A stretch of DNA of 64,000 nt from NCBI GenBank assembly GCA_963619535.1, contig CAVEWV010000004.1:1983-65982 (forward strand), in the 5' to 3' direction. A program made the translations under genes and the position numbers. The stretch comes from Acutalibacteraceae bacterium. GTDB taxonomy: Bacteria; Actinomycetota; Coriobacteriia; Coriobacteriales; UMGS124. A model generated the notes under the pieces. The model worked only from the letters and a program-made list of their open reading frames with translations, was not told where the DNA came from and did not search any database. Below are positions 6,734 through 44,747 of the stretch, in pieces; the first letter of the stretch is position 1, and each line of letters begins with the position of its first letter.

Positions 6734-6791
6734 GGTGACAATTGTCACCGCATCAAAACCCCTGGTAGATGGCACGGTGACAAATGTCACC
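6734..6791. promoter_or_regulatory. Pair of 16-bp palindromic operator-like sites
   Basis: GGTGACAATTGTCACC at 6734-6749 (perfect palindrome) and GGTGACAAATGTCACC at 6776-6791, centres 42 bp apart. They lie in the divergent region between the crp-like gene and the ABC/activase operon. 5-N4-5 geometry as in FNR-type boxes. Confidence 0.6.
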
Positions 6792-7137
6792 AAAATAAAC
6801 TATGGTTTACCCACGGATACGGGGAAAATCGGCTGACAACTCGTTGCATTAACAATCAACTATTGCTAACAATAGCGAAACGCAATGCCTTTTCGCGCAT
6901 GCGCAAGGACGCGGCGAGGGCGGAGAGCATGCGGGCCTTCGGCTGCGCCCCGCGCGCATGCGCAAGGGCGTGACGCCGCCGCGAGCAACCCGTCGCCGCA
7001 CCCGACGACCATGCCCCGCGCGCGAACAGGCACGCCGCGCCACGTTCGCCCACATCTCGCCGGCCCCCCGCGGCAGCCCCGCGCCCGGCCGCCTCACCGC
7101 TTTGACTGTTGGTCTCAGACCGATTGGAGTTGGCACC

Positions 7138-8367
7138 ATGAGCAAGCACACTACCGAAGGCACCTTCTCGCACGGCCTTTCGCGGCGCGGTTTCCTCGCC
7201 ACGCTGGGGGCGGCCTGCGCCGCCCTGGGCGCGATGGGGCACGCCTCGCAGCACCCCGGCCAGGCGCTCGCCCAGGCCCAGGAGGCCTCCGGGGACGCCT
7301 CCGCCGACCAGGCCGCGTCGTCGGGCTCGAGCCGCTGGACGAGCGTGCGTGAGGAGCGCGAGCTTTCCGGCTCGGCCGACCCCGTGACCGTGCGCGTGGG
7401 CCTCATCATGGGGCCGCCCTCCATGGGCCTGTCCGAGTTCCTGCTCGACGCGCAGGCCGGCAACACCACCAACGACTTCCAATTCACGCTCAACGGCGTT
7501 GACTACGTGGGCCTTTCGGCCGCCTTCAACCAGGGCGACTACGACATCTGCACGCTGCCCTCCAACATCGGCCCCGTGCTCTACAACAACCGCGAGCTCA
7601 AGAACGAGTACCGCGTCATCTCCGTCAACAACTTGGGCGTTCTCTACGTCATCACCACCGACGTGTCGGTGTCGGGCTTCGACAGCCTGGCCGGGCGCAC
7701 GGTGTACGCCTACGGCGAGGGCGGCACGCCGGAGTACACCATCGAGGCCCTGCTCAAGAAGACGGGCTATGAGGGCTCGTTCAACCTGGAGTTCAAGTCC
7801 ACGCCGTTCGAGATCCTGAACCTGCTCATCGACGCGCCCAACACCGTCGCCATCCTGCCGCAGCCCTTCGTGGCCCTGGCGCAGATGATGCTGGGCGACT
7901 CCCCGCTCTACGTGCCGGTGGACATCACCACCGAGTGGGACAAGGCCTTCGCCGACACGAGCTCGCAGGCCGTGACCACCACCACCATCGTGAACAAGCA
8001 GTTCCTGGAGGAGCACGAGCAGGCCGTGGTGGAGTACCTGCAGCGCGCGGGCAGCTCGGTGGCGTGGAGCCAGCAGAACATGGACGAGGCCGCCAGCCGC
8101 CAGGTGGAGCTGGAGACGTTCCTCAACAACGACGTCGCCGCCGACGCCATGCCCTACATCGACATGGTGAACCTGGTGGGCGAGGAGATGCGCGAGGCCC
8201 TGTCGGGCTTCGTCGACGAGCTCTACGCCGCCAACCCCGACTCCATCGGCGGCGCCATCCCCGGCGAGGACTTCTACTACCTGCCGCCCGCGGGCACCGT
8301 GGAGAGCGTGGGCAGCGCCAAGGCGAAGGCCGCCGACACCGCGTCCGACGCCGGCCAGCAGGGCTAG
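7138..8367 (+). CDS. Tat-signal ABC transporter substrate-binding protein (NitT/TauT / NMT1-like), 409 aa
   Basis: Track ORF 6958..8367, trimmed to ATG 7138 (GGAG 8 nt upstream). LSRRGFLATLGAACAALGA twin-arginine signal. The mature part resembles NMT1/SsuA-type binding proteins and is followed by a cognate permease and ATPase. Confidence 0.7.
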   Translation: MSKHTTEGTFSHGLSRRGFLATLGAACAALGAMGHASQHPGQALAQAQEASGDASADQAASSGSSRWTSVREERELSGSADPVTVRVGLIMGPPSMGLSEFLLDAQAGNTTNDFQFTLNGVDYVGLSAAFNQGDYDICTLPSNIGPVLYNNRELKNEYRVISVNNLGVLYVITTDVSVSGFDSLAGRTVYAYGEGGTPEYTIEALLKKTGYEGSFNLEFKSTPFEILNLLIDAPNTVAILPQPFVALAQMMLGDSPLYVPVDITTEWDKAFADTSSQAVTTTTIVNKQFLEEHEQAVVEYLQRAGSSVAWSQQNMDEAASRQVELETFLNNDVAADAMPYIDMVNLVGEEMREALSGFVDELYAANPDSIGGAIPGEDFYYLPPAGTVESVGSAKAKAADTASDAGQQG

Positions 8368-8374: not shown

Positions 8375-9445
8375 ATGCAGATCGCCGCGATAGCCGCGCT
8401 CGTGGGCCTGCCCGAGGAGCGCGTGGCGCAGATAACGCAGATGGTGCGCACCCAGGGCATGGCCGACGCCCAGATGGGCTCGATGATGGCCATGGCCAGC
8501 AACAAGGGCATCTCGCGCGAGCAGATCGGCGAGATGCTGGCCTCCATGGGCGTGGGCCGCACCCAGGTGCGCCGCGTCATGCTCCAGCAGGGCCTCATGA
8601 GCGCCGAGGAGGTGGCCGCCGAGGAGGAAGCCGAGCGTGAGGCCCAGGCGCAGCTCGAGCGCCAGGCCCGCGCCGAGAAGGTGCGCGACTGGCTCAAGAA
8701 GGCCGGCGTCATCCTCTTCTGGCTCATCGTGTGGGAGGTGGCCGACCACGTCATCGACAACCGCCTCGTGCTCGCCGGCCCCATCCGCACGCTGCAGGCC
8801 TTGGGCGAGCAGGTGATGAAGAGCGGCTTCTGGGCGATCTGCGCGGCGAGCTTCGTGCGCATCGCGGCGGGCTTCCTGCTGTCGTTCGTGTGCGGGCTGG
8901 GGCTGGCGGTGCTGTCGTACCGTGTGCGTGTGGTGCGCGCCTTCATAGAGCCCATAATCTCGCTTCTGCGCACCATACCCGTGGTGTCGTTCATGATCAT
9001 GCTGCTCATCTGGGTGGGCAACCAGATGCTCACCGTCTACCTGGCGTTTCTCATCGTGCTGCCGCTCATCTACACCAACACGCTCACGGGCCTTGAGAGC
9101 GTGGACAAGCACATGCTGGAGATGGCGCGCACCTTCGGCATGTCCAAGTGGCGCACCTTCATGTACATCTACCGGCCCGCGCTCATGCCCTTCCTCACGA
9201 GCAGCTGCAAGATAAGCCTGGGCATGAGCTGGAAGAGCGGCATCATGGCCGAGGTGCTGGCCACCCCCAAGCCCTCCATCGGCAAGGAGATGAGCACGGC
9301 CCGCACCTTCCTCGACACGCCCGACCTCTTTGCCTGGACGGTCGTGGTGATGATCTTGTCGGTGGTGTTCGAGAAGGCGTTCCTGGCGCTTTTGCGCCGG
9401 GCGGGCAGGCCTTTGGGCGGCGTGCTGGGAAAGCGGGGTGAGTAG
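8375..9445 (+). CDS. ABC transporter permease (NitT/TauT family) with ~100-aa N-terminal extension, 356 aa
   Basis: EAA-loop-like EMARTFGMSKWRTFMYIYRPALMPFL and multiple TM helices from about residue 110. The N-terminal 100 aa are soluble and rich in M, Q and E. Confidence 0.8.
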   Translation: MQIAAIAALVGLPEERVAQITQMVRTQGMADAQMGSMMAMASNKGISREQIGEMLASMGVGRTQVRRVMLQQGLMSAEEVAAEEEAEREAQAQLERQARAEKVRDWLKKAGVILFWLIVWEVADHVIDNRLVLAGPIRTLQALGEQVMKSGFWAICAASFVRIAAGFLLSFVCGLGLAVLSYRVRVVRAFIEPIISLLRTIPVVSFMIMLLIWVGNQMLTVYLAFLIVLPLIYTNTLTGLESVDKHMLEMARTFGMSKWRTFMYIYRPALMPFLTSSCKISLGMSWKSGIMAEVLATPKPSIGKEMSTARTFLDTPDLFAWTVVVMILSVVFEKAFLALLRRAGRPLGGVLGKRGE

Positions 9446-9448: not shown

Positions 9449-10081
9449 ATGAGCTGGGAGATTGCCGGTATGGCCCAGGACGTGCGCGACATCGCGCTCA
9501 AGGGCGTGCGCAAGGCGTACGGCGACAAGACGGTGCTCGACGGGGTGACCCTCACGCTGGAGGCGGGGCGCACGTACTGCCTGATGGCCCCCTCGGGCTC
9601 GGGCAAGACCACGCTTCTACGCGTGCTTTTGGGCCTGGAGGGCATCGACGGCGGCTCCATCGAGGGCGTAGGACGCGGCCGCGTGGCCATGATGTTCCAG
9701 GAGGACCGCCTCTGCGAGGTGCTCACGGCCGTGGAGAACGTGGCGCTCGTGCTGCCCCGCGACGTGCGCCGCGCCGACGTGCGCGCCCTTCTGGAGGAGA
9801 TCTTGCCCCCCGATTGCATGGAGAAGCCCGTCATGCAGCTCTCGGGCGGCATGCGCCGGCGCGTCTCGCTCGTGCGGGCCATGGCCTTCCCGAGCGACGC
9901 CGTGGTGCTCGACGAGCCGTTCACCGGCCTGGACGCGGGCACGCGCCGCACGGTGATCGACTTCGTCCTGCGCCACCGGGCCGGCAGGACCCTGCTCGTG
10001 GCCACGCACGGGCAGGACGACGCGCGCCTTCTGGGCGCGGACACGATAGACCTGGCCGCCCTGCAGGGCTGCGGGGCATAG
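9449..10081 (+). CDS. ABC transporter ATP-binding protein, 210 aa
   Basis: Walker A APSGSGKTT, signature LSGGMRRR, Walker B VVLDEP. Confidence 0.9.
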   Translation: MSWEIAGMAQDVRDIALKGVRKAYGDKTVLDGVTLTLEAGRTYCLMAPSGSGKTTLLRVLLGLEGIDGGSIEGVGRGRVAMMFQEDRLCEVLTAVENVALVLPRDVRRADVRALLEEILPPDCMEKPVMQLSGGMRRRVSLVRAMAFPSDAVVLDEPFTGLDAGTRRTVIDFVLRHRAGRTLLVATHGQDDARLLGADTIDLAALQGCGA

Positions 10082-10369: not shown

Positions 10370-10436
10370 GGACGGCCGCGCCCCTGAGGGGCGCTTGGGC
10401 GAGCGGTGTTGTTGTGTGACGGACGGAGAGGTGCGC

Positions 10437-13400
10437 ATGTACTACCTGGGAATAGACGTCGGGGCCTCGTCGGTGAAGGTCGCCGCCTTGGACGAGGGCC
10501 GGCAGGTCGTATACACCGAGCGGCTGCCCCATGCCGGCGCCCCTGCGCGAGGCTTGGGGACGCTGCTGGGCAGGCTCGACGCCAAGCTGGGCCTTCAGGC
10601 GTGCGCGGCGTGGGTCGCGTGCGGGTCGGGCGCCGCGCTCATGGGCGACTACCTGGGGCAGGATACCTGCGAAGGCGCCCAGGGCGCAGGGCGCATCCCC
10701 ATCCTGGGCGACGTGCCCGCCGTGACGCGCGGGGCGGCCCTGCTCGCCCCGCAGGCCCGCTCGCTCATCGAGATCGGCGCACAGTCGGCCCGCTACGTCA
10801 CAGGGCTCGACGAGCGCGTGCCGCAGTTCGCGGTGAACGAGAGCTGCGCGGCCGGCACGGGCTCCTTCTTTGAGGACCAGATGATGCGCCTGGGGCTGCC
10901 GCTCGAGGAGTACTCCGACCTCGCGGCGCGCTCCACCAGCGTGCCGCGCCTCTCGGGGCGCTGCGCCGTCTTCGCCAAGACCGACATCATCCACCGCCAG
11001 CAGGAGGGCGTGCCCGTGGAGGACATCCTCCAGGGCCTGTGCCACGCGATGATGAAGGCCTACAAGGCCACCATCGTGCGGTCGCTTCCCGTGAGGCCCC
11101 CTGTAGCCCTGGGCGGCGGCGTGCTGGAGAACGCGGGCGTGGTGCGCGCGGCGCGCGAGGTGTTCGGCCTGGCGGAGGGCGAGCTGCTCGTGAGCGAGAG
11201 CTTCGAGTTCTTCGGGGCGGTGGGCTGCGCCCTGGAGGCGGCCGACGGCGCGCAGGGCGCCTCCGAGCTTGCGGCCGGCCGCGCCCAGACGCTGCTGGAG
11301 CTGCGTGCGGTCCTGCCGGGCGGCGCGGCGGGCGCAGGCGCGGCCGTGCAGCAGGGCGCGACCGCGGATGGCGAGGCCGGCCGTGAGGCGGCCGGCGGGG
11401 CCGACGCCGCCGACGCCGCGCAGCCCGGCTGCTCGGGCGCGCAGTGCGCCGCGCCCGCCGCGGCCGCCGAGCGCCTGACGTACCTGGAGCCGCTCCCGGC
11501 CGAGCCGCTCGACCGCGGCCTGGGCTTCGAGTGCCTGCCCAGGGGAGAGTGGCCGCGCGACGCGCAGGGCGCCACGCCCTGCACCCTCGGCATCGACGTG
11601 GGCTCTACCAGCACGAACCTCGTGTTGGTCGACCTTGAGGGCCGCCTGCTCGACGCGCAGTACCTGCGCACGCGCGGCAACCCCAAGGCGGCCGTCCAGG
11701 AGGGCCTGGCGAGCCTGGAGGCGCGCCTGGGCGGGGCCGTGCGCGTCGTGACCGTAGCGACCACGGGGTCGGGCCGCGCGATGATCGGCGAGTTCGTGGG
11801 GGCCGACATCGTCCGCGACGAGATCACCTGCCAGGCGCGCGGCGCCGTGGCGGCCGACCCGCAGGTCGAGACCGTCTTCGAGATCGGCGGCCAGGACTCC
11901 AAGTACGTGAGCGTGCGCGACGGCCGCGTGGTGGACTTCCAGATGAACAAGGTCTGCGCCGCGGGCACCGGCTCCTTCATCGAGGAGCAGGCCGCGCGCC
12001 TCTCCATCCCGCTGCCCGAGTACGGCGCGCTTGCCTTCTCGGCCCAGGCCCCGGTGGACCTGGGGGAGCGCTGCACGGTGTTCGTGGAGACGGCCATCAA
12101 CGCCGCCCTGGCCGCGGGCGCCACAAAGGCCCAGGTGGCGGCCGGCCTATGCCAATCGGTGGTGCGCAACTACCTGCACAAGGTGGTGGGCACCAAGCCG
12201 GTGGGGCAGCGGATCGTGCTGCAGGGCGGCGTGTGCTACAACCCGGCCCTCGTGGCGGCCTTCAAGCAGTTCTACGGGTCACGCGTCACGCCCAACCCGC
12301 ACTTCGCCGTGTCGGGCGCCTTCGGCGCGGCGCTGCTGGCCCTGGAGCACCTCCGCGCCCAGGGGGCCGACGGCATGCAGAGCGCCTTCAAGGGCTTCGA
12401 CCTGTCGGGCGCGGGCAAGGCGCGCGCCCAGGTGAGCTCCGAGGAGGTCGAGCGCAACCTCGCCTACTTCGCGCGCACCAAGGCCGCCTATGAGCAGGGC
12501 TACACCGGCCAGATCGAGCCGGGCAAGAAGACGGTGGGCATCCCGCGCGCCCTCATGATGCACAAGCTCTTCCCCATGGCCAACGCCTTCTTCAAAGCGC
12601 TGGGCTTCAACGTGCTGCTCTCCAGCGAGTCAGACGAGCAGACCGTGCGCGCCTGCCAGGGCGCGGCCCAGGGCGAGACGTGCTTCCCCTTCAAGTTGCT
12701 CCACGGCCACATGGTGGAGCTCGTGGAGGCCGGGGTGGACTACATCTTCATGCCGCGCATCCACACTGTGCGCCATGTGAAGTCCACGGTGGCGCACAAC
12801 TACGCCTGCCCCTACATGCAGGTGGGCGCCGAGCTGGCCGCCCTGGAGCTCGACTTCAAGGGCCGCGGCATCGAGCTCATCAGCCCGCAGTTCGAGATGG
12901 ACTACGGCCAGAACGCCATCGCCGACTCGCTGCTCGAGATAGGCGAGCGCCTGGGCTTCACCCGCCAGCAGGCGGCCCGCGCCATGCTCAAGGGCGGCTT
13001 TGCGGTCATGAAGTTCACGAAGGTGCTCGAGGACTACGGCGACGAGCTGCTGCGCTCCCTTGCGCCCGGCGAGCGGGCCATCGTGCTCGTGACGCGCAAC
13101 TACAACTTCGAGGACCCCGTTCTCAACTCCGGCATCGCCCGGGCCCTCATCGAGCGCGGCTGCAAGGTGCTCACGGTGAGCCACCTGCACGCTCACTCGC
13201 TGGACATCTCCATGGACTACCCGAGCCTGTACTGGCCCTTCGCCCAGCACGTCATCTCGGGCGCCAAGCTCGTGCGCCGCGACCCGCGCCTCTTCGCCGT
13301 GTACCTCACCAACCACGGCTGCGGCCCCGACGCCATGGTGAGCCACCTGTTCCGCAAGGAGATGGGCGACAAGCCCTACCTGCAGATCGAGATGGACGAG

Positions 13401-15209
13401 CACTACTCCGCCGTGGGCATCGTCACGCGCATCGAGGCGTTCCTGAACGCCATCGAGAGCTACACGGCCCCCGAGGAGCGGCTCATCCCCACCTCGGTGG
13501 AGTTCGTGGACACCGAGCACGTGTCCGCCCAGCCCGGCGTTCCCGCCGTGATGCCCGAGGTGGGGCCGTACGGCGAGCTCGTGGCGGGGTGGCTTGCGGG
13601 CCAGGGCATCGACGTGGAGCTTGCGCGCACCACCGAGGAGACCCTTGAGCTGGGACGTCGCGAGACCACGGCCAAGGAGTACCTCACGTTCGCCGACACC
13701 CTGGGCCTGGCGCTGGCCGCCGCCGAGGGGCGCATGGGCGCGGACGGCGGGCCCGATGCGGCTCGCGCTGAGGGCGGCTCGGCCTACCTCACCGAGCTTG
13801 AGGCGCCTGTCGCGGCGCCCTCCACGCCCGGCGCCTTCCAGCAGGGCAACGACACCGCGGGCGCGCGCATGCAGCTGCTGCTTCCCTCCTCGGAGGGTGC
13901 CGAGGCCGACGGCCAGTACGACCGCGTGATCCGCTCCATCCTCGACGAGCGGGGCCAGCGCGACGTGGCGGTGGTGGCGCCCGACCTGGACAAGCTGCCC
14001 TGCGCCGTGGACGACATCGAGGGCCTGTTCGTGCGCCTGCTCGCCGGCGACGTGGTGCTCGCCGCCCCGCGCGACGCCCGCGAGGCGCTGCAAGGCAGGC
14101 TCGCCCGCGAGCTGGGCGCGTGCGCGGGCACGCAGGACGCGCTGGAGTGCGTGACGCGCGCGGCCCGCGAGGTGGCCGGCAAGCCGCGGGGCGCGGGCAA
14201 GCGCCTGGGACTTGTGGGCGAGTGGCCCGTCGTGTGCGGCGAGCACCTGGTGGGCGGCTGCTGGGCCGATCTGGAGCAGGCGGGCCATACCCTCGTGCGC
14301 ATGCCCCTGGCCGAGTACCTGCTGTTCCTGTGGCGCGACGCCGCCCAGGCCGACGAGCACGAGCGCGTGACCAACGACATCATGCCCATCCTGGGCGAGA
14401 CGGGCGTCGAGGTGACGCCCGGCATGCCCGACTTCACGCGCCGCGACTTCGGCCTGTACACGGCCGGCGTGCAGGTGAGCGCCGACGGCAAGCCCCTTGA
14501 GGACGCCCAGATCGACTTCGCGGGCACGAGGCGTCGCGGTGGCGCGTCCGCGGCGGCCGACAAGCCGGCGGTGGCGGTGGACTTCTCGGCCGGCTTCACG
14601 ACGCAGGCCGACGGGGGCGCCGTGAGCGCGAGCGAGGCTGCGGCGGCCCTGCGGGCCCTGGAGGGCCACTGCGGTGGCCATGCCGAGGGCTGCGAGGGCG
14701 CGGGGGAGTGCGGCCAGCACGGCGCAGGCTGCGGGGTGGATGCCGTCTCGGGTGCCTCGCTTGCGCACATCATCGGCCCCGACGGCATGCCCCAAAGCGC
14801 CCATGAGCCCAAGCGCCCGCGCCTGCTCGCCTATCCTCACGTGCTCGACAAAGCCGCCTACGAGGAGCTTTTCGGCCGGCTGGAGGAGATGATGGCCCAG
14901 GTGGCGCAGGCACTTGGGGCCGCGAGCGCCTTCGAGCCCGACCAGACGGCTCTGCGCGACAGCGCCACGGGGCTCATCGGCCAGTTCCGCGGGGCCAACG
15001 CGCGCTACCGTTACGCGAAGGCTGTGGCGCTCCATGGCCGCTGCGACGGCGTGATCGAGGCGGCCTCGATGTACGAGAACGTCGACACGGTCCTGCGCCT
15101 GCACGAGCAGGAGCTCTCGTTGAGCCCGGCTATCCTGCACCTCAACTTCGACGGCACGCTCGACGCCGGCCCCGTCGAGAAGCTGCGGACGTTCCTGTAT
15201 TACCTGTAA
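10437..15209 (+). CDS. Fused double BadF/BadG/BcrA/BcrD-type ATPase (acyl-CoA dehydratase activase-related) with dehydratase-like C-terminal regions, 1590 aa
   Basis: Track ORF 10395..15209, started at ATG 10437 (GGAGAGG upstream). Two activase modules (YYLGIDVGASSVKV...CAAGTGSFFEDQ and LGIDVGSTSTNLVLV...CAAGTGSFIEEQ). DUF2229-like region ending HYSAVGIVTRIEAFLNAI. About 585 further residues with Ala/Gly-rich linkers and a Cys/His cluster. Confidence 0.8.
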   Translation: MYYLGIDVGASSVKVAALDEGRQVVYTERLPHAGAPARGLGTLLGRLDAKLGLQACAAWVACGSGAALMGDYLGQDTCEGAQGAGRIPILGDVPAVTRGAALLAPQARSLIEIGAQSARYVTGLDERVPQFAVNESCAAGTGSFFEDQMMRLGLPLEEYSDLAARSTSVPRLSGRCAVFAKTDIIHRQQEGVPVEDILQGLCHAMMKAYKATIVRSLPVRPPVALGGGVLENAGVVRAAREVFGLAEGELLVSESFEFFGAVGCALEAADGAQGASELAAGRAQTLLELRAVLPGGAAGAGAAVQQGATADGEAGREAAGGADAADAAQPGCSGAQCAAPAAAAERLTYLEPLPAEPLDRGLGFECLPRGEWPRDAQGATPCTLGIDVGSTSTNLVLVDLEGRLLDAQYLRTRGNPKAAVQEGLASLEARLGGAVRVVTVATTGSGRAMIGEFVGADIVRDEITCQARGAVAADPQVETVFEIGGQDSKYVSVRDGRVVDFQMNKVCAAGTGSFIEEQAARLSIPLPEYGALAFSAQAPVDLGERCTVFVETAINAALAAGATKAQVAAGLCQSVVRNYLHKVVGTKPVGQRIVLQGGVCYNPALVAAFKQFYGSRVTPNPHFAVSGAFGAALLALEHLRAQGADGMQSAFKGFDLSGAGKARAQVSSEEVERNLAYFARTKAAYEQGYTGQIEPGKKTVGIPRALMMHKLFPMANAFFKALGFNVLLSSESDEQTVRACQGAAQGETCFPFKLLHGHMVELVEAGVDYIFMPRIHTVRHVKSTVAHNYACPYMQVGAELAALELDFKGRGIELISPQFEMDYGQNAIADSLLEIGERLGFTRQQAARAMLKGGFAVMKFTKVLEDYGDELLRSLAPGERAIVLVTRNYNFEDPVLNSGIARALIERGCKVLTVSHLHAHSLDISMDYPSLYWPFAQHVISGAKLVRRDPRLFAVYLTNHGCGPDAMVSHLFRKEMGDKPYLQIEMDEHYSAVGIVTRIEAFLNAIESYTAPEERLIPTSVEFVDTEHVSAQPGVPAVMPEVGPYGELVAGWLAGQGIDVELARTTEETLELGRRETTAKEYLTFADTLGLALAAAEGRMGADGGPDAARAEGGSAYLTELEAPVAAPSTPGAFQQGNDTAGARMQLLLPSSEGAEADGQYDRVIRSILDERGQRDVAVVAPDLDKLPCAVDDIEGLFVRLLAGDVVLAAPRDAREALQGRLARELGACAGTQDALECVTRAAREVAGKPRGAGKRLGLVGEWPVVCGEHLVGGCWADLEQAGHTLVRMPLAEYLLFLWRDAAQADEHERVTNDIMPILGETGVEVTPGMPDFTRRDFGLYTAGVQVSADGKPLEDAQIDFAGTRRRGGASAAADKPAVAVDFSAGFTTQADGGAVSASEAAAALRALEGHCGGHAEGCEGAGECGQHGAGCGVDAVSGASLAHIIGPDGMPQSAHEPKRPRLLAYPHVLDKAAYEELFGRLEEMMAQVAQALGAASAFEPDQTALRDSATGLIGQFRGANARYRYAKAVALHGRCDGVIEAASMYENVDTVLRLHEQELSLSPAILHLNFDGTLDAGPVEKLRTFLYYL

Positions 15210-34861: not shown

Positions 34862-34875
34862 TCTTGCATTCAAAA

Positions 34876-34952: not shown

Positions 34953-34963
34953 GCAAGAGAGAT

Positions 34964-36210: not shown

Positions 36211-36271
36211 GGTGACAATTGTCACCATAACGGTTGAACTGGAACTATGCGAGGCGGTGACAATTGTCACC
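36211..36271. promoter_or_regulatory. Second pair of the 16-bp palindrome GGTGACAATTGTCACC
   Basis: Perfect copies at 36211-36226 and 36256-36271, centres 45 bp apart, 187 bp upstream of ATG 36458. Confidence 0.6.
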
Positions 36272-36457: not shown

Positions 36458-36982
36458 ATGGATACTCGTATGGATCGCAGGTCGTTCCTCAAGAACGCCG
36501 CCCTGGTCGGCGCAGCCCTCGTCGCCGCCCCCGCGCTCCTGGGCGCCGTCGAGCCGCAGAAGGCGCTGGCGGATGGTGGTACGTGCACGTGCAACGTTTG
36601 GGTTAAGCCGACTGGTGCGCCTGCTATTGCCATTGGACTTGGCAATGTGGCGTATATGACTAACCCGAATACGCCTGGCAACGGTGGTTTCCCGACGAGC
36701 GCTGCTCAGGACAATGCTTCGTACACCGACAACGGCGATGGCACGTGGACTGTTACTATCCCCCTTGTCAACACGATGTTTACTTTGACTTCCTATACGG
36801 ATGACGGTTCCCAGGAGTGCAAGATTGAGAGCGGTGCTTATTCTGATGGCCACTACACTTCTCTCGTTGTAACCCTGCCGGCTGTGTCCGCCACCTACAC
36901 TTATGCTGCTACAGAGCATGCTTCTTATGCTCTGTACGAGGGCGATAAGAGGTGGAATATTAACATCCAGCTGTCTCTTTAG
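36458..36982 (+). CDS. Tat-secreted single-module protein of unknown function, 174 aa
   Basis: Track ORF 36209..36982, started at ATG 36458 (AAAGGAG 8 nt upstream). MDRRSFLKNAALVGAALVAAPALLGA twin-arginine signal. The mature part resembles the repeated module of the downstream giant protein (NVAYMTNPNTP ... IPLVNTMFTL). Confidence 0.75.
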   Translation: MDTRMDRRSFLKNAALVGAALVAAPALLGAVEPQKALADGGTCTCNVWVKPTGAPAIAIGLGNVAYMTNPNTPGNGGFPTSAAQDNASYTDNGDGTWTVTIPLVNTMFTLTSYTDDGSQECKIESGAYSDGHYTSLVVTLPAVSATYTYAATEHASYALYEGDKRWNINIQLSL

Positions 36983-37111
36983 TATCTGCTATCGAGGCAC
37001 ATCGGGCACTTCCTGGATGCGCATCGATAGCAACAGACTTCCGTAACGGGTGCGCCCGCCGTGCTACAGCGCGGTGGGCGTATGCGGTTCTTGTGCGACA
37101 GGAGCACATTA

Positions 37112-40100
37112 ATGAAATCAAGCCAATTGCAATGCAAAGGTGCGGCATTGGGGCAACGTTTTCTTGCTGTCTTCATGTCTGCAGCCATGGTGTTCTCAAC
37201 AATTCCATTGCCCGCATATGCCGATGATACTATTGATTCTGATTTTGCAGATCAGGCGGCTGTTGTCGAGCAGGGGTCCCTTGAGAATGAATTCAATCTA
37301 CCTGAAAATGCTGCCGAGCAAGCCGAGACGGTAAACGAAGAAAACCCCGAGGCGGTTGACACAGCTGAACAGGAAATTGCTGCTGAATCTGATGTTGCGC
37401 AATCTGGTGTAACAGATGAGGGAGGGACCGCTGCTCCTTCTGCCGCTGATGAAGCAACTGCTTCTTCTGCGGGGAAAAATGGTGGGGATTTTGAAATCGA
37501 TGCTTCGGACGATGGCGAATCAACGTTAGTTTGCACAATAAATGGAGCAGAGACGACAGCCGCCGATGCCGTTTCGTCTGTTTTCGAATATTGTGACACT
37601 GAAGGTGTTGCGCCAACTTACGTTGCTGTGTCTATCACAACGTCTGACGATACGCTCAAAGAGCAGCTGGCCAGCGCAACAATCAAAGTCGAACATAACC
37701 CAGCGAGCTTTAATGTTCAAGCTGTACATGAAGCTTTAAATAATAACTTTGATGCAGAGGTTCAGTCTGACTATTTTACTGTTAGCCTCATTAATCAAAA
37801 TGGTGAAATAGCGGTTAGCCAAAATGATGTCACGCAAATACAATTGACTGTTCCCGTAACAACTAATGCCTCTGTTTTTCGATTTGATGAAAATGCAGGT
37901 TTGAGTCAGCTCTCCACCCTTTCGTTTGACGGCGAGAAACTTGTGGTAGAGGCGGATAAACTCGGTACGATTGCGGTAGCTAAAGACGTTTCTCTTCCTG
38001 TGCCGCAGGAAGAGTCGGCTTCAGATTCCAACGACGCAAGTAGCGACTTATCGTCTCCGGTTTCTCCCTCCTACAACGCCGTCGCCAACCTCGTGGCCGG
38101 CTACGACGTCGAGGGCGAGAAGTTCGACCTGTACCTGAACGCCGCCACCGACGGCAAGACGATGGAGCAGCCCCGCGAGTCGGCCAACGCCGTGGCCGTG
38201 GCGGGCGACGGCTTCGTGACCCTGACGGTGCCCGTCGAGCCCTCCTACGCCCAGGCCGGCCTGGCCCTGGGGTCGCTGGGCGCCCCCGACGGCGCCGGCG
38301 TCGAGGCGTCCCTGTCCGGCGACGGCCTGACCGCCACGTTCAGGCTGACCGAGCGCGCCGACTCCTACGAGCTCTCCGGCTCGGCCGACTACTACGGCTA
38401 CGCCTCGTCCTCGATGCGCCTGGACGTCTCCGTCCCCTCCGAGGTGCTCGACGAGGCGTTCGGCTGCGTTGCTCCTGTCAGTGCTTCGACGGGATTTGCT
38501 GCAGGTGCCTATGCAGTAACGGCTAATCTTTATGCACTCGATGATGGGGGAAATCCCGTTTTTCTGTCGTCTGTTCCTCCTGACGGGGTGGGTATCGGCG
38601 CGTCCACGGATGAAAACGGTCTCATTCTTAATGGTGCCCGTTCACTGACACGCTATGACGGCACCACTACGCTTGATGTCTGGTTGGACGAATCCGTCTC
38701 GTATGACTCTTTGGGTGCGTCATCAAATGTCGCAAGCGCGCAAGTTCTTGATGACCAATACAGCCTGTTCCATGCTTCTTTCGTTCTTTCAGACTTGTCT
38801 GGTCGATATGACTTCAGCGGCGCTTCGGTTACAAAGAATGGCGTAACGTATACCCGACTGTTTCTTCGCGTTGATTATGCAAATGCTACCGATTTGTATT
38901 CGTCCAACGTTGCCCCGAACAGTGGGAATGACGACCTTGCGCCTGGCACATATGAAGTTACGGCAAATCTCTATGTTCCCGGTGAGTACAATCCTATTTT
39001 GGTTGGTTATAACGCATATATGGGCAGTCCCGAATTTCCGCCCACGCGGCCGGTGTACCCCGGCTTTACTCCTGATGTAGAGGAAGATCTTGGGTGGACA
39101 TACGCCGGTACGTTGACGGTAAACGATGACCATACCGCAACGCTTGACTTGCCTATTAACTGCACGGCCTTCACTCTTCAAAGCGTTGGTGGTTCTGAAA
39201 ATGCCAGGGTAACCGATGTCGAATGGGGAACAGATTCCACGGTTTTGGGAATCCTGTCTAAAAATGGTATCAATGGTTATATTACGCATCTCACTTTCTC
39301 ATTGGATGATTTAAGCACCGGGTTTTACGTCTTTACGGACTGCTCGGAGTTTCCGGTTCCGTTTGAGCAGGTATGGAATCTCCCTCTCTATCTCAAGGTT
39401 GACCTGGGTAATGCGCATACTCCTGGCGAGAATCCGGACAATCCTGATGAACCTGGAAATTATGAGGAAACGCTCACTGATGCGTCCGGTGCCATTTCGC
39501 TCGATTTAACCGCTTCTTCTGCTGTTGTTGCGAACAAGTGGAACGGTGCTACTCTCGTCGTAGAGCGCATCGTTTCAGGTGAGGATTACTCTAAGGTAAA
39601 TAGTGAAATTGCCTCTCTGTTTAGCAGGGATGACGCCTCGTTCGCAATGTATGACATACAGGTTCTCGATGCTGATGGCCTGCCTCTTGACCTCTCTGCT
39701 TTCGATTCAGCTGTGTATCGCCTGATCGATACACGTGGCGTTTTCGGCATTCCTGAAAACCAGCCAATATATGATGCCCTTTATTACTTTACATATAATG
39801 GCGAGACGCTTGAGCGTTTTGCGGGTAATAACAGCTTCGCGAATGGTTTTGGTTCAGCTGTTGTCACCGACTGGAATGCTACGGAATCCGGGAGTTTTGT
39901 CCTTGTCTACCCCTATACATATGCAAGTGGGGTAGCTAGCAAAGTCGGACTACCTGTTTCGTTGGAGCTTGCGGATGTGACGGGCGTGTCGGTTGTCGGT
40001 TCGCTCACTGATTATCAGAGCGCAATCAAATCTGATGACTTTGGTTCGCTCAAATTGCTCTCGAGCGTTGAGTCCAACGGTGACAAGGTTGAGAAGGCCC

Positions 40101-43100
40101 AATCGGCTCTTGCTGAACTTGGCAGCATGCCTTACGACAAATGCAATGTGAAAGCAATCGCAACAGCAATAGCCAGGATCGATGGGTCGTATATCCAGAC
40201 ATGGGCGTATTCCAGTGTTACGGATACATACGTCTACAAAATCCCCGTGGATACGCCTGATTCGACCATTTATTTGATAACTGTCGACTCGGCGGGTGAT
40301 AGTAGCTGCCAGCCAATTCCCGAGTCTAATCTGGTTATAACTAATGATGGAGCCGAGATTTCCTGGACGATGCCTCGCAATTGGGATGAAAAAGTCCAGG
40401 TAATCGAGCTATTCAAGGCATTGTACCGTGGCGCCACAGGCGACCCGAACAATGAGGGCTATGCATACTACGCCGTTGTTTCTAACGGGGAGTCTGACAA
40501 GATTGTTCCCACTGAACCAGTTGCCACTTCGGACCTGATTTACTCAGGTGCAGCCCAGACTGGTGTTATCGCAGGCGAGGGCTATACGCTTTCAGGTGAC
40601 TTCCAGGCAACTGATGCCGGCACTTACAAGGCGCTTGCCACCCTGGATGCTGGTTATGTCTGGAAGGACGGCTCCAAGGACGCAAAGACCATCGAATGGT
40701 CTATCGCTAAGGCAATGCTGACGGCCACCTATGCGGGCGAGCAGGTCATGCGCGGAGTAGAGCCTGGCTATGCGGTGAGCGTCGAGGGCTTCGTTGACGG
40801 CGAGAACGTTACCAACGCCGATGAATTTGTTATGCCCGCAATTGCCGACAAGGACAAGCCTGCCGCATCCGAGTTGGTGGCTGGCTTCTTCAAGGAGCTT
40901 GCTCCCTCAGGCGGTTCTGCAAAGAACTACCAGTTCAAGTATGTTGGCGGCACGTTGAAGGTCGTTGCCGCCGCGGGTGACCTCAAGCCCGGTACGTACA
41001 CGGTGACGGCTAACCTGTTCGTTCCCGGCGAGCTCAACGCGGTGCTGGTGGGCGTGAACGCGTACCTTACCAACCCCAGCACCCCTCTGACCGACGGCAG
41101 CGCTCCGACCAAGCCTGTTTCGGACAACGCGACGTTGACGGTTGCTGAGGACGGCACCATCACGCTTGACCTGGATGTTGTGAACCCCGTATTCACACTC
41201 CAGAAGATTGGCGGTGGCACCAATGCCCAGGCCACCGTTACGGGCAAGGGCGACTCCGTTGGAGCTTCCGACGCCCAGTACAAGACGCGCATCTCAAAGC
41301 TCTCCATCAAGCTGCTCGATTCTACGGGCACCTATATCTTCTCAGACTGCCTGGAGTACCCCACGCTTCTCAACCAGGTGTGGACGGTGCCGCTGACGCT
41401 CAATGTTGACTTCTCCAACGTTGACACGGTTGAACCCGCTCCCGACCCGACGCCTGACCCCAAGCCCGATCAGCCGGTGCAGGTTGCCGTGCCTGCTGCT
41501 AAGGCAAATCTGACCTACAACGGCAAGACCCAGACCGGCGTTGCTGCAAGCAAGGCCTACACGCTCGTGGGTGCTACGGCCAAGGATGCTGGCACTTACA
41601 CGGCCACGGCCACGCTGAACGAGGGTTACGAGTGGGCCGACGGCACGACTGGCGCTAAGACCGTCACCTGGACCATCGCCAAGGCCAAGCTCACGGCCAC
41701 CTATGCAGGGGAGACCATCGTCGAGGGCGGCGAGCCTGCCTATGCCGTGGATGTGACGGGCTTTGTGGGCGGCGATACCGTTTTGACCGCCGAAGGCTTT
41801 GAGGCCCCCTCTGTCTCCAAGGTTGCTGCCGATCAGCTCGTTGCGGGCAAGAGCTTCACGCTCACCCCTGCGGGCGGTGCGGCCAAGAACTACTCTTATA
41901 TATATGTTGCAGGCACGCTGAAGGTGACAGCCCCGGTGGGCACCATCGCCCCCGGTACCTATCAGGTCACGGCCAACCTGTACGTGCCCGGCGAGCTCAA
42001 CTCCGTGCTGGGCAAGAACGCCTATCTCACCAACCCCTCCACCCCCATCACCGACGGCAACGCGCCCCTCACGCCTGTCTCCGACAACGCCAAGCTCGTG
42101 GTGCGCTCTGACGGCAGCCGCGTGCTCGTCATCCCGGTGGTGAACCCCGTGTTCACGCTCCAGGGTATGGGCGACGGCGCAAACGTGAAGGTGCTTGGCA
42201 GCGTGCGCGGCAACGACGTCGTGGGCTCCACCCAGGTGAGCGACCGTATCACCGAGCTGTATGTGGAGCTGGGCGACGATTCCGGCTCCTACCAGCTGGG
42301 CGACTGCGTGGAGTTCCCCACGCTGCTCAACCAGACCTGGAACGTGCCTCTGCGCATCTCGGTGGACTTCGCCTCGATGAAGCAGCTTTCGAACAGCTCG
42401 ACCATCACCGTCCCCGGGCAGAACGGTACCGACAAGCCCGGCAACGGCACCAACGGCGGTTCCGACAACAACGGCGGCAACGGCTCGAACAACAACGGCA
42501 ACCAGGGCAACAACTCTGGCACCAACAACGGCGCCAACGGCGGCGGCCAGGGCAACAACGGCACGGGCGACAACGCAAACAACGGCGGCAACAACGGCCA
42601 GGGCACCACGGGCAACGTCGACAACTCCGACGGCAGCTATCGCCTCACCGCCGGCACCTACACGGTAACCGCCAACATCTGGCTGTCCGACCGCTCGGCC
42701 ACGGGCCTGCCCCTCATGCCCTACCTCACGAGCGGCGACTTCCCGCCCATGTACCCCGTCACCGGCAACGCCACGCTCACGGTGGACGAGTCGGGCCACG
42801 CCACGTTGCGCGTGCCTATCGCCATCCAGAGCAAGGTCATGACGGTGAGCGGCATCTCGGGCCTGGACATCGTGGGCACCGAGTACTCCGGCGGCTACGT
42901 GAGCGCCGTCACCATCGACCTGGGCACCATCACCGACATGAGCGGCGTCATCACCCAGAGCTGCTCGGCCACCATCGTGATGGGCAGCCTGGCCTCCACC
43001 ATCTCGGGCATCACGGGCTCGCACACCTGGCCCGCCACGTTCCAGGTGGTGTTCACGGGCGTGCCGGTGAGCAGCAACGCCGGCAGCTCCTACGACTGGA

Positions 43101-43453
43101 GCAAGGCCGCCGCAGCCGCAGGCCTCACGGCCGGCGTGGGCGAGCTTGCCGCCGAGGGCACGGGCGCCGCTGCCGACCTCGAGTTCCTCTCGGTTGCCAC
43201 CAAGGCCGCCACGCAGGGCGCCATGCACGCTGCTGCCGGCGCGGCTGAGGCTAGCGTGGCCGAGAACACGGCCGCCGACTTTGTGGGCACGGGCGTTTCG
43301 GGAGTGCTCACCGCGCTCGACCCCGACGCCGCAAGCGGCACCGACGCCACGGCGGCCCTCGCGCTGGCTGCGGCCCTTACGGGCGGCGAGGTTGCGACCG
43401 CCACGGGCGCGGAGGCGTTTGAGGCTGCCTTCTTGGCTGGCAAGGCTGCCTAG
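37112..43453 (+). CDS. Large secreted multi-module protein (five VTANLYVPGE-type modules, two MBG-like domains, Asn/Gly-rich linker), no recognisable anchor, 2113 aa
   Basis: Track ORF 37061..43453, started at ATG 37112 (AGGAG 7 nt upstream). Signal peptide FLAVFMSAAMVFSTIPLPAYA. Module starts at ~38504, 38945, 40991, 41954 and 42653. MBG-like LTATYAGE..V.G.EP.Y.V.V.GFV.G ... NY.(F/Y).YV.GTLKV at ~40720 and ~41690. N/G-rich run 42410-42640. Ala-rich C-terminus without LPXTG or a TM helix. Confidence 0.8.
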   Translation: MKSSQLQCKGAALGQRFLAVFMSAAMVFSTIPLPAYADDTIDSDFADQAAVVEQGSLENEFNLPENAAEQAETVNEENPEAVDTAEQEIAAESDVAQSGVTDEGGTAAPSAADEATASSAGKNGGDFEIDASDDGESTLVCTINGAETTAADAVSSVFEYCDTEGVAPTYVAVSITTSDDTLKEQLASATIKVEHNPASFNVQAVHEALNNNFDAEVQSDYFTVSLINQNGEIAVSQNDVTQIQLTVPVTTNASVFRFDENAGLSQLSTLSFDGEKLVVEADKLGTIAVAKDVSLPVPQEESASDSNDASSDLSSPVSPSYNAVANLVAGYDVEGEKFDLYLNAATDGKTMEQPRESANAVAVAGDGFVTLTVPVEPSYAQAGLALGSLGAPDGAGVEASLSGDGLTATFRLTERADSYELSGSADYYGYASSSMRLDVSVPSEVLDEAFGCVAPVSASTGFAAGAYAVTANLYALDDGGNPVFLSSVPPDGVGIGASTDENGLILNGARSLTRYDGTTTLDVWLDESVSYDSLGASSNVASAQVLDDQYSLFHASFVLSDLSGRYDFSGASVTKNGVTYTRLFLRVDYANATDLYSSNVAPNSGNDDLAPGTYEVTANLYVPGEYNPILVGYNAYMGSPEFPPTRPVYPGFTPDVEEDLGWTYAGTLTVNDDHTATLDLPINCTAFTLQSVGGSENARVTDVEWGTDSTVLGILSKNGINGYITHLTFSLDDLSTGFYVFTDCSEFPVPFEQVWNLPLYLKVDLGNAHTPGENPDNPDEPGNYEETLTDASGAISLDLTASSAVVANKWNGATLVVERIVSGEDYSKVNSEIASLFSRDDASFAMYDIQVLDADGLPLDLSAFDSAVYRLIDTRGVFGIPENQPIYDALYYFTYNGETLERFAGNNSFANGFGSAVVTDWNATESGSFVLVYPYTYASGVASKVGLPVSLELADVTGVSVVGSLTDYQSAIKSDDFGSLKLLSSVESNGDKVEKAQSALAELGSMPYDKCNVKAIATAIARIDGSYIQTWAYSSVTDTYVYKIPVDTPDSTIYLITVDSAGDSSCQPIPESNLVITNDGAEISWTMPRNWDEKVQVIELFKALYRGATGDPNNEGYAYYAVVSNGESDKIVPTEPVATSDLIYSGAAQTGVIAGEGYTLSGDFQATDAGTYKALATLDAGYVWKDGSKDAKTIEWSIAKAMLTATYAGEQVMRGVEPGYAVSVEGFVDGENVTNADEFVMPAIADKDKPAASELVAGFFKELAPSGGSAKNYQFKYVGGTLKVVAAAGDLKPGTYTVTANLFVPGELNAVLVGVNAYLTNPSTPLTDGSAPTKPVSDNATLTVAEDGTITLDLDVVNPVFTLQKIGGGTNAQATVTGKGDSVGASDAQYKTRISKLSIKLLDSTGTYIFSDCLEYPTLLNQVWTVPLTLNVDFSNVDTVEPAPDPTPDPKPDQPVQVAVPAAKANLTYNGKTQTGVAASKAYTLVGATAKDAGTYTATATLNEGYEWADGTTGAKTVTWTIAKAKLTATYAGETIVEGGEPAYAVDVTGFVGGDTVLTAEGFEAPSVSKVAADQLVAGKSFTLTPAGGAAKNYSYIYVAGTLKVTAPVGTIAPGTYQVTANLYVPGELNSVLGKNAYLTNPSTPITDGNAPLTPVSDNAKLVVRSDGSRVLVIPVVNPVFTLQGMGDGANVKVLGSVRGNDVVGSTQVSDRITELYVELGDDSGSYQLGDCVEFPTLLNQTWNVPLRISVDFASMKQLSNSSTITVPGQNGTDKPGNGTNGGSDNNGGNGSNNNGNQGNNSGTNNGANGGGQGNNGTGDNANNGGNNGQGTTGNVDNSDGSYRLTAGTYTVTANIWLSDRSATGLPLMPYLTSGDFPPMYPVTGNATLTVDESGHATLRVPIAIQSKVMTVSGISGLDIVGTEYSGGYVSAVTIDLGTITDMSGVITQSCSATIVMGSLASTISGITGSHTWPATFQVVFTGVPVSSNAGSSYDWSKAAAAAGLTAGVGELAAEGTGAAADLEFLSVATKAATQGAMHAAAGAAEASVAENTAADFVGTGVSGVLTALDPDAASGTDATAALALAAALTGGEVATATGAEAFEAAFLAGKAA

Positions 43454-43610
43454 GATTCGCTGCGGTTGCGCTGCGGAAGGGTGTATGTGCGTCGGTTCGC
43501 CGCGCCCTTCCGCGCCGTGCCGCACAAAATCCCAGGGTTCGTTACACGATCTGCGGGCAGGGCGGGGGAGCCGCGCTTCCCTGCCCGCCCCGCGCGATAG
43601 GAGATGAGAC

Positions 43611-44747
43611 ATGCAGATTTCGATGAAGGCCGCAGCCGGCGTGCTTGTGCCGCTTGCGCTTGCAGGCACCTGCCTTGCGTGCGCCCCCACGGCTGCCTGG
43701 GCCGATGCTGCCGCGGAGCCTGCGGTTGCGGCCGCTGAACAGGCCGCCGAGGCCGCCAGCACCGATGAGGCCGCTGCAACCGATGAGGTGTTTGCCGATG
43801 GCGTACTGACGTTTGGCGGCATGCAGGTGACGCTGCCCGCCGACATGCAGGTGCGCGTGGCGGGCACGCTTGCCAGCGCCGTCAACGCGGAGGGCACGCT
43901 TACCGCAAGCGTGGAGGACATCTCCTTTGCCACGCTGCCCGACAAGGCCGACCTGGCCGCCGCGTTTGCCGACGCCGCCAACAAGACGGTTACCGGCTAT
44001 GCCACGGCGTCCGTCACCGACAAGGGCACGCACAGCCTGGCAGAGGGCGTGACGGCCTACGTGTACGAGCTCGACGTGACGGGCCCCTACACTGCCGTAA
44101 AGAACGCCGACGGCACCACGACCGCCTCCGAGGTGGGCCCCGAGGGCCACTGGACCATCACGCAGGAGTATGTGGCGCTCAAAGACGGCGGCTTCGCCCT
44201 CGTGCAGGTGGCAGTGTCTGAGACGGCATCCGATGAGGACGTGGCTGCGGCAAAGGCGGCCGTGGAGTCCATCGCGATTGCGCCTGAGAAGGACGCGTCC
44301 GATGACGCCGCCGCCAAGGCCGACGACGGCCGTGCGCATGCGGGCAGTTTCACGTTTGAGCTGCCCGAAGGCCTGCGCGAGGCGTCTGATGAGCTCGTGT
44401 GGCTCGGCACGACCGACAACGTGCTGGTGGAGGCCACAGGCGCGCTCGTGGAGGCCGAGGACGCCAAGACGCTGGACGACGAGGGCACGAAGGCCCTGTT
44501 CGAGGCCGCGGCCGAGGGCATGGGGGCCACATTCGAGGGCTCGAGCGTTCGCAAGGCGGGAGACACCGACCTCACGGTGGGCGTGTTCTCGCTGCCGAAC
44601 GGCGCGGAGACCTACGAGTGCCTCATCGTGCTGGTGCCCGTGGAAGACGGAAGCATCGAGGGCCTCACGGTTGTGTGTGACCCAGCGGCTGCGAAGGCGT
44701 GGGCCGACAAGTTGGACACGATGTTCTCGTCCATCGAGGTGTTGTAG
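43611..44747 (+). CDS. Secreted hypothetical protein, 378 aa
   Basis: AGGAG upstream of the start. Signal peptide AAGVLVPLALAGTCLACAPTAAWA. Acidic, Ala-rich mature protein with no motif I recognise. Confidence 0.65.
   Translation: MQISMKAAAGVLVPLALAGTCLACAPTAAWADAAAEPAVAAAEQAAEAASTDEAAATDEVFADGVLTFGGMQVTLPADMQVRVAGTLASAVNAEGTLTASVEDISFATLPDKADLAAAFADAANKTVTGYATASVTDKGTHSLAEGVTAYVYELDVTGPYTAVKNADGTTTASEVGPEGHWTITQEYVALKDGGFALVQVAVSETASDEDVAAAKAAVESIAIAPEKDASDDAAAKADDGRAHAGSFTFELPEGLREASDELVWLGTTDNVLVEATGALVEAEDAKTLDDEGTKALFEAAAEGMGATFEGSSVRKAGDTDLTVGVFSLPNGAETYECLIVLVPVEDGSIEGLTVVCDPAAAKAWADKLDTMFSSIEVL

Follow-up and report, generated by a model that had tools for sequence, protein, structure and literature searches.

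We analysed a stretch of 64,000 nucleotides (hereafter the window) from the genome assembly of an Acutalibacteraceae bacterium (GTDB class Coriobacteriia; GCA_963619535.1, contig CAVEWV010000004.1, positions 1,983 to 65,982), in which two neighbouring genes encode a small secreted protein and a giant surface protein that share a repeated module. The small gene (36458..36982, + strand), preceded by the Shine-Dalgarno sequence AAGGAG, specifies a protein of 174 amino acids (aa) that consists of a twin-arginine translocation (Tat) signal and one module, with no anchor; the signal scores 22.4 bits against TIGR01409, for which the cut-off is 16.7. The giant gene (37112..43453, + strand), which also has a good Shine-Dalgarno sequence, specifies a protein of 2113 aa when read from its ATG, with a Sec signal (…AYA/DD) and five modules. 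(Note that an alternative start is possible at a GTG at position 37061.)

In the giant protein there are five matches to the motif G[TA]Y.[VI]TAN, which start at DNA positions 38504, 38945, 40991, 41954 and 42653, exactly where an earlier reading of the letters alone (the sequence-only reading) had placed the starts of five repeats, and blastp supports the repeats as well. The modules lie at 38504..38920 (module 1; divergent), 38945..39430 (module 2), 40991..41470 (module 3), 41954..42430 (module 4) and 42653..43105 (module 5), all on the + strand. Each is about 150 aa long. In internal blastp comparisons modules 3 and 4 matched with an E-value of 1e-50 at 56% identity, modules 3 and 2 with 5e-34, modules 3 and 5 with 3e-7, and modules 2 and 1 with 2e-6. 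The small protein matched module 3 (E 8e-10) and module 4 (E 2e-9), which confirms the earlier claim that it is itself one such module. A hidden Markov model (HMM) of the module, run over all six frames of the window, found no copy outside these two genes. (A degenerate sixth module is possible at approximately aa 320-455 of the giant protein, 'YNAVANL...', but with an HMM E-value of only 1 it is not significant.)

The remainder of the giant protein also agrees with the earlier description. Pfam finds MBG (PF18676) at 31.7 bits, against a gathering score of 25, in two MBG_2 stretches, the first at approximately 40709..40975 (+) and the second at aa 1527-1603 (41690..41920, +), and the translation has an Asn/Gly-rich linker at aa 1768-1840 (42413..42640, +). 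After module 5 comes an Ala-rich C-terminal tail ('...LDPDAASGTDATAALALAAALTGGE...AAFLAGKAA'; 43106..43453, +) that is conserved in the relatives P0006, P0012, P0090 and P0118 and at locus L008. No sorting signal of the LPXTG type was found in any frame of the 3' end of the gene, and no C-terminal transmembrane (TM) helix, so that the absence of a recognisable anchor stands. We rejected a frameshift or read-through as the origin of the tail: neither of the two remaining frames contains a sorting signal, and because relatives retain the tail it is a genuine feature. Its pattern, 'LDPDA(A/S)SGT..AALALAAA..GG...FLA', stands where other family members have TM, SLH or sortase anchors, and the tail may be an unrecognised anchoring or partner-binding signal.

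Profile searches of Pfam, NCBIfam and the PDB found no sequence family that covers the module, which is thus as uncharacterised as had been stated. Pfam assigned no family to 46 family modules at E<=10 (NEAT, PF05031, appeared for one of the 46, at E 0.16), and at E<=0.1 it found no NEAT match in the small protein, the giant protein or the product of the third gene, which follows the giant one. A word-indexed search of 5.8 billion sequences returned five relatives of the module, and a HMMER profile scan of 1.84 billion protein representatives returned 280, of which 137 had an E-value below 1e-30; these relatives carry one to five modules each. The large ones are surface proteins with anchors that vary between SLH domains, a TM helix plus basic tail, and NPKTG-, NPQTG- or APKTG-like signals (some end in NPKTGD, NPQTGD or APKTGD followed by a TM helix and basic tail), a variety that fits display at the cell surface. 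The family also holds small anchorless one-module proteins, with a Tat signal in Coriobacteriia and a Sec signal in Firmicutes; the nearest relatives of the small protein in the window come from uncultured Coriobacteriales metagenome-assembled genomes (L006 and L008).

AlphaFold2, run with family alignments, modelled both module 3 (predicted local distance difference test score, pLDDT, 94.3; predicted TM-score, pTM, 0.87) and the small protein (pLDDT 91.0, pTM 0.86) with confidence. The small protein is predicted to be a beta-sandwich with the same strand order as module 3, a finding that, together with blastp, supports the homology of the small protein and the repeats of the giant one. When the model of module 3 was compared with the PDB by Foldseek, the top places were taken almost entirely by NEAT domains or the NEAT-like protein Shp, with IsdX1 (3sik) leading at probability 1.0, E 2e-3 and a target-normalised TM-score of 0.52-0.56. 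The best full-length matches of the small protein, although weak, were the NEAT domains of Hal, IsdC and IsdX1. Weak as the matches are, the predicted fold thus comes closest to NEAT domains and Shp, a likeness that the sequence-only reading had suggested. It does not extend to membership by sequence: hhalign compared the module profile with a NEAT profile at a probability of 0.14% and E 0.41. (That NEAT profile consists of four sequences, one of which, IsdA, was verified as 100% identical to 2ite, and it recovers Isd chains at 1e-12 to 1e-56.) Moreover, when 288 modules were aligned, Tyr, His, Met and Cys each stayed below 30% in every column of the last strand, and the YxxxY motif, which had been reported as not evident, is indeed absent from that strand. 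Given the hhalign probability of 0.14%, we therefore regard the module as a new domain family with a NEAT-like predicted fold, outside NEAT itself.

A second group of genes lies 21 kb upstream of the small and giant genes. A Crp/Fnr-family regulator (5857..6741, − strand; Pfam cNMP_binding and HTH_Crp_2, NCBIfam FtrB/Fnr-like) probably starts at a Met at 6579, and no Fnr-type N-terminal Cys cluster was seen in its translation. Next to it, the gene that we refer to as X (6958..8367, + strand; probable start 7138, 'MSKHTT...SRRGFLATLG') encodes a Tat-exported NMT1/THI5-like substrate-binding protein, as judged by its Tat signal (TIGR01409 score 22.2 against a cut-off of 16.7), by its best PDB profile match (3hn0, E 2.6e-14) and by Pfam, which finds NMT1, weakly, in 23 of 25 X homologues. 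The module HMM found no match in the X of the window. There follow an ATP-binding cassette (ABC) permease of the BPD_transp_1 type (8375..9445, +), for which the best NCBIfam matches, SaoP, TauC and SsuC, are all below cut-off, and an ABC ATPase of 210 aa (9449..10081, +; Pfam and NCBIfam). Binding protein, permease and ATPase in a row constitute an ABC importer of the NitT/TauT type; all equivalog models score below cut-off and therefore assign no substrate. The last gene of the group, c5 (10395..15209, +; Pfam and NCBIfam), encodes a protein of 1604 aa with two BcrAD_BadFG domains and DUF2229. This is the architecture of the plasmalogen synthases/glycerol ester reductases (PlsA/Ger; PMC13159169, PMC12838417), and the domain set of c5 agrees with the definition of PlsA/Ger (PMC13159169), for which the corresponding activity would be the ester-to-(vinyl)ether conversion of glycerolipids.

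The two groups of genes share a 16-bp palindrome. Between the regulator gene and X lie copy 1 (6734..6749), the perfect palindrome GGTGACAATTGTCACC, and copy 2 (6776..6791), GGTGACAAATGTCACC, which has one mismatch and starts 42 bp after copy 1; copy 3 (36211..36226), located 232 bp upstream of the small gene, and copy 4 (36256..36271), which starts 45 bp after copy 3, are both perfect. Four matches in 64 kb compare with an expectation of 0.22, and none of 100 shuffles reached four. The palindrome is confined to these two promoter regions, with two tandem sites in each, and no further match with three or fewer mismatches was found in the 64 kb. A palindrome like this would suit a dimeric Crp-family protein. 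The exact operator of the window is absent from the other loci that we compared (see below); variants of the form GGTAACA[AT][AT]TGTTACC occur upstream of small or large genes in three related ones (L011, L015 and L020).

To place the window in context we collected 41 loci from genomes, in a scan that used a narrowed module alignment, and a dozen from metagenomes. They come from Coriobacteriia, Clostridia and Leucobacter, the genomes including Collinsella, Senegalimassilia, Paraeggerthella, Rubneribacter, Gordonibacter, Slackia and Olsenella as well as Leucobacter, Intestinimonas, Ruminococcus, Marvinbryantia, Oribacterium and Evtepia. The usual order of genes is the small gene, at least one large module gene and X, then the permease, the ATPase and a Crp/Fnr-type regulator, and the same set recurs in independent genomic contexts. 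In more than 20 loci, spread over Coriobacteriia, Leucobacter and Clostridia, the small gene lies directly upstream of a multi-module gene; the layout of a free single module beside a multi-module protein, which had been remarked on in the window, is thus a conserved pairing. X adjoins module genes in approximately 39 loci, and X, permease and ATPase accompany module genes in all fetched loci for which about 2 kb of flank or more is available; the one exception, L043, is the second copy in its genome, and the other copy there, L044, is complete. At L008, the closest locus, the large gene, the third gene, X, permease, ATPase and c5 are contiguous.

X homologues, which carry a Tat or Sec signal and fall into at least 723 clusters, are 45-87% identical to the window copy across phyla, with a mean column identity of 65% among 25 sequences from two phyla; in these 25 the invariant residues are acidic, Asn/Gln or aromatic, with no invariant Arg or Lys and no conserved Cys. 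In five Clostridial cases (L009, L014, L045, L047/48 and L052) X is fused at its C terminus to a module, and such a fusion is found in 66 of the 120 best X homologues. Informative source names are restricted, among the sequences retrieved, to X homologues ('ABC transporter substrate-binding protein' or, at JGI, 'NitT/TauT family transport system substrate-binding protein'), and the few names attached to module proteins are 'hypothetical protein'. Most loci encode a homologue of the regulator, within or next to the cassette or as a fusion with the ABC ATPase; in Clostridia the ATPase is joined with cNMP_binding and HTH_Crp_2 domains in a single transporter-regulator polypeptide of approximately 435-483 aa (L001, L009, L014, L039, L047, L048 and L052). 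DtxR/MntR-type repressors occur within the cassette in three Clostridial lineages (L001, L012 and L047/48).

The enzyme that travels with the cassette differs between loci. c5 (1200-1600 aa) is a conserved neighbour in approximately 33 anaerobe loci, including L015, where it lies upstream of the small gene as it does in the window; neither the Leucobacter loci nor L051 have it. Orthologues of a class-I S-adenosylmethionine (SAM) methyltransferase (47-85% identity; best NCBIfam match the DVU_1556 family, below cut-off) are encoded between the large gene and X in L016, L018, L028, L034, L049 and L051, only where no BcrAD_BadFG/DUF2229 gene was seen, as compared with approximately 33 other loci. 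Hence c5 and the methyltransferase look mutually exclusive, with the proviso that the flank of L049 ends at the ATPase and is uninformative on c5. (A Cupin_2 gene of approximately 109 aa follows c5 in L010, L012, L014, L015, L017, L047, L048, L052 and the Collinsella loci; no Cupin_2 homologue was found in the window.)

The 288 aligned modules comprise two subtypes, which we call distal (D) and proximal (P). D modules have Tyr at column 29 (91%) and Phe at column 72 (94%), together with Tyr119 and Cys124-x-Glu126, whereas P modules have His at column 29 (91%) and Met at column 72 (98%), together with Trp14 and Trp137. The subtypes are ordered: all 26 small proteins in the alignment resemble D, no module follows the P module in 54 of 63 representatives, and the module fused to X is of type P in 66 of 66. 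Across loci, then, the small protein is D, the large protein is D...D-P, and X or an X-P fusion comes next. The window conforms, with D in the small protein and D-D-D-D-P in the giant one; its module 5 has Tyr at column 29 (as do 9% of the P subtype) along with Met at column 72, Trp14 and Trp137. Column 29 sits in the motif [YH]-L-T-N-P, with a spacing equal to that of the NEAT lip motif Y-x-x-x-P (Y87...P91 in IsdA), and column 72 aligns beside 'SFW' of NEAT strand beta4, in the sole stretch that hhalign aligned. By this sequence register, both positions would line the NEAT heme pocket.

We propose that the small and giant genes form the outer part of a conserved, Isd-like capture-and-import cassette of Gram-positive bacteria, a reading to which we assign a probability of roughly 0.6. 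The small protein and the distal modules of the giant protein would bind a small ligand outside the cell, in a pocket that is probably that of NEAT domains, and the ligand would move inward to the single proximal module, usually the last before the anchor or tail, where His/Met replaces the distal Tyr/Phe. The proximal module would then hand the ligand to the Tat-exported, NMT1-type X, from which the BPD_transp_1/ATPase importer would take it up, with the Crp-family regulator controlling both halves through the GGTGACAATTGTCACC operators. Inside the cell the co-encoded reductase, an ATP-dependent member of the PlsA/Ger family in the anaerobes, or the class-I SAM methyltransferase in Leucobacter, may process the cargo or modify lipids. 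The features that argue for such a relay are the pairing of small and large genes, the company of X and the ABC genes, the fusion of X to a module, the D...D-P order, the shared operator, the predicted fold, the position of the Tyr/Phe to His/Met switch and the anchors of the relatives. That the ligand is a metal-tetrapyrrole (heme or corrinoid) is a more tentative suggestion, with the odds against it.

Several observations weigh against this proposal. The giant protein of the window has no recognisable anchor, and the two halves, being 21 kb apart there, are not one operon. The structural matches to NEAT and Shp are weak (E 2e-3 to 0.1, TM-score 0.35-0.56, root-mean-square deviation approximately 8 A), and those of the small protein are interspersed with partial, generic Ig-fold matches. 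The assignment of the D/P switch to NEAT pocket positions depends on sequence register. In addition, the modules might bind no ligand and instead serve for homotypic docking or as structural domains, and the architecture of c5 is that of a lipid-modifying enzyme, whose link to a cargo the relay leaves unexplained.

Bacillus anthracis encodes IsdX1, with one NEAT domain, and IsdX2, with five, followed by a binding protein and a permease. The arrangement described here resembles this system and the Isd relay of Staphylococcus aureus, which runs from NEAT domains to the IsdE binding protein and on to the IsdF permease, in that a secreted single-domain protein is encoded beside a five-domain one, binding protein, permease and ATPase follow, and a membrane-proximal domain subtype would hand over to the binding protein; IsdX1 is also the best structural match of module 3. 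It differs in that the module lacks sequence or profile homology to NEAT and the YxxxY motif, is approximately 150 aa long with a long insertion after strand 1 (NEAT domains are approximately 120 aa), and is accompanied by an NMT1 binding protein and BPD_transp_1 permease in place of the Peripla_BP_2 and FecCD of Isd and Hmu. Furthermore, the cassette lacks a sortase gene, its regulators are Crp-type and not Fur, and IsdG/HmuO was not found among the Pfam-annotated cassette genes of the window, L001 and L047-L053. Hence the hemophore/receptor analogy drawn in the sequence-only reading survives as regards the arrangement and fails as regards the transporter, which is of the NitT/TauT type and not IsdE/F or HmuTUV. 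In the Shp-HtsABC system of Streptococcus pyogenes the NEAT-like, non-canonical Shp, with Met ligands, transfers directly to the binding protein; Shp (2q7a) is among the top fold matches, and a Met is conserved in the proximal module too, along with a His. Shp, however, is a single domain with Met/Met ligation and no detectable homology to the module, and HtsA is a heme-type binding protein. The HtaA/HtaB-HmuTUV system of Corynebacterium is similarly an actinobacterial surface relay of repeated non-NEAT (CR) domains to an ABC importer, but its domains belong to a different family and HmuTUV is a heme-type transporter. What would be new here is a surface relay to an ABC importer with a new domain family and a different class of transporter.

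Two further systems touch on the cytoplasmic side. SAO comprises an importer of the NitT/TauT group tied to ATP-dependent Fe-S reductases that are related to benzoyl-CoA reductase and hydroxyacyl-CoA dehydratase (Haft 2022 preprint, 10.1101/2022.07.06.499078). The system is a parallel and not a match: its SaoP is the best NCBIfam model for the permease in the window, at 95 bits against a cut-off of 295; SAO lacks surface module proteins, whereas the cassette lacks selenocysteine/Cys-Cys motifs and X has no conserved Cys. As for PlsA/Ger, the 1604 aa of c5 compare with approximately 1639 aa for the single-gene plsA of Bifidobacterium, and the domain architecture is the same; the small HGD-D domains were not detected in c5 at E<=1e-3. 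The published accounts of PlsA/Ger (PMC13159169, PMC12838417) describe no linkage to an importer.

Among more specific or competing explanations, the acquisition of heme or another metal-tetrapyrrole, with Tyr in the distal modules and His/Met in the proximal one ahead of import by X and the ABC transporter, is in our view possible but doubtful. In the anaerobes the BcrAD/DUF2229 enzyme would then stand in for the oxygen-dependent IsdG/HmuO step. Consistent with this idea, the folds that come closest belong to heme binders (NEAT domains and Shp), the hemophore IsdX1 first among them; the layout parallels IsdX1/IsdX2; the coordinated change from Tyr to His and from Phe to Met yields a classical pair of axial ligands; and DtxR/MntR-type repressors are present in the three Clostridial cassettes. 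The relative P0005, moreover, ends in NPKTGD, a TM helix and RRRR, an ending that we take to be like the SrtB-type signal of IsdC. Leucobacter was the one genus of aerobic Actinobacteria in the scan in which the module family turned up, and it includes strains that depend on heme and lack htaABC (PMC6868719). Against heme, the modules have neither YxxxY nor a conserved Tyr, His or Met in the last strand; profile methods detect no NEAT homology; and the best-scoring assignment of the DtxR-like regulators is the manganese-dependent MntR. The transporter, with its NMT1-like X, is of the NitT/TauT type and not Peripla_BP_2/FecCD, which to our knowledge is the type of all known heme importers. X also lacks an invariant basic residue (Arg or Lys) as a partner for heme propionates, and the architecture of c5 is that of the lipid enzymes PlsA/Ger. 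A still more specific version, in which Gram-positive gut anaerobes would use an oxygen-independent pathway for heme or corrinoids made up of a NEAT-like relay, NMT1/NitT-TauT import and a reductase of the PlsA/BCR family, is a long shot; equally speculative is the role that the reductase would have there in place of IsdG/HmuO, namely to reduce the ring or the metal or to free iron. (Our literature search found nothing relevant on NEAT-like domains in Coriobacteriia or on DUF2229 with heme.)

We consider it unlikely that the module proteins are simply adhesins or structural proteins of the envelope, with the module as a homotypic docking domain and the ABC neighbourhood reflecting no more than co-regulation or co-transfer. 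Such proteins would account for the MBG domains and adhesin-typical linkers of the giant protein, for the SLH or sortase-type anchors of many relatives and for the Ig-like beta-sandwich, which is common among adhesins, and the window does encode other giant adhesins (SpaA/Cna_B/FctA and TQ-ester proteins). They would leave unexplained why a module is fused to X in 66 of 120 X homologues, why the modules keep so strictly to D...D-P, with type P carried by X or lying next to it, why there is a secreted single-module partner that has no anchor, and why linkage to X and the ABC genes is nearly invariant across phyla.

The third alternative is a system for lipids, lipid head-groups or amphiphiles, in which the modules would bind or extract the molecule, X and the ABC transporter would import a neutral or cationic moiety, and PlsA/Ger (in anaerobes) or the methyltransferase (in aerobes) would modify a membrane lipid. 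It draws on the match between the c5 architecture and experimentally confirmed plasmalogen/ether-lipid synthases, the mutual exclusion of c5 and the class-I methyltransferase across loci, the lipid O-methyltransferases among the weak matches of the latter, the acidic, Asn/Gln and aromatic invariant residues of X with no Arg or Lys, and the weak similarity of the permease to choline/betaine permeases. We judge it improbable, given that the modules match no lipid-binding family, NMT1-type binding proteins are not known as lipid carriers, the methyltransferase matches are generic (30-70 bits, far below cut-offs) and the His/Met switch is left unexplained.

Apart from the Isd, Hta and Shp heme systems of pathogens, little is known of how Gram-positive bacteria, and gut commensals in particular (Collinsella, Eggerthellaceae, Blautia/Ruminococcus and Intestinimonas among those concerned here), capture scarce nutrients through a thick wall. 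The cassette is widespread, with 280 module-protein representatives and no fewer than 723 clusters of X, yet unannotated; our literature search, which was not exhaustive, found no publication that describes it. Its logic is testable through the order of subtypes, the fusion that names the partner binding protein, and the regulator with its operator, and Leucobacter, an aerobic host, is likely easier to handle than gut anaerobes. Knowledge of the ligand would define both a new family of domains and a new route of import, and might account for the PlsA-like reductase that accompanies the cassette.

The third gene (43611..44747, + strand), noted earlier as encoding a secreted protein of 378 aa after the giant one, is an open reading frame (ORF) whose product starts with a signal-like sequence. 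L008 is the only fetched locus with a homologue (68% identity), and the gene is thus lineage-specific; as a paralogue of X or of the module it was rejected (blastp E >1). The Ala-rich tail of the giant protein co-occurs with it in both loci for which downstream sequence is known, namely the window and L008.

Between the two halves of the cassette in the window lie a 5619-aa SpaA/Cna_B/FctA adhesin, DUF3737 and GNAT genes, tRNA-Ile and a 226-aa ORF. The adhesin ORF (15268-32127, +) contains SpaA, Cna_B and approximately 15 FctA (isopeptide) domains and ends in 'VKTAD', a hydrophobic stretch and RRRTRE, which resembles a sortase-type signal; a second large adhesin is encoded by an ORF of 1804 aa (50253-55667, −) with five T-Q ester-bond domains and SpaA domains. 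For the 226-aa ORF (35421-36101, −), which separates tRNA-Ile from the small gene, neither Pfam nor NCBIfam gave a match. Other genes of the window, at 7-699, 2603-4057, 4214-5266 (−), 32292-34657 and 44970-49370, encode a LuxR-type regulator, an S33 hydrolase, an RlmA-like methyltransferase, DUF3737, an Eis-like GNAT, a ClC channel, an SDF symporter and an FMN-dependent dehydrogenase, none of which is conserved beside the cassette elsewhere.

Genes for Lysozyme_like and TpcC proteins, markers of conjugative elements, lie just upstream of the cassette in L001 (1820-3775), and together with the approximately 50% identity of X between phyla they hint at horizontal spread. In the window, GC content changes along 34800-43200: it is 0.47-0.54 over the stretch that begins with tRNA-Ile (34876-34952) and takes in two thirds of the giant gene, and rises to 0.63-0.71 in the final third of that gene and beyond, compared with approximately 0.68 for the window overall. 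This suggests that the 5' part, beside a tRNA gene, is mosaic or was recently acquired.

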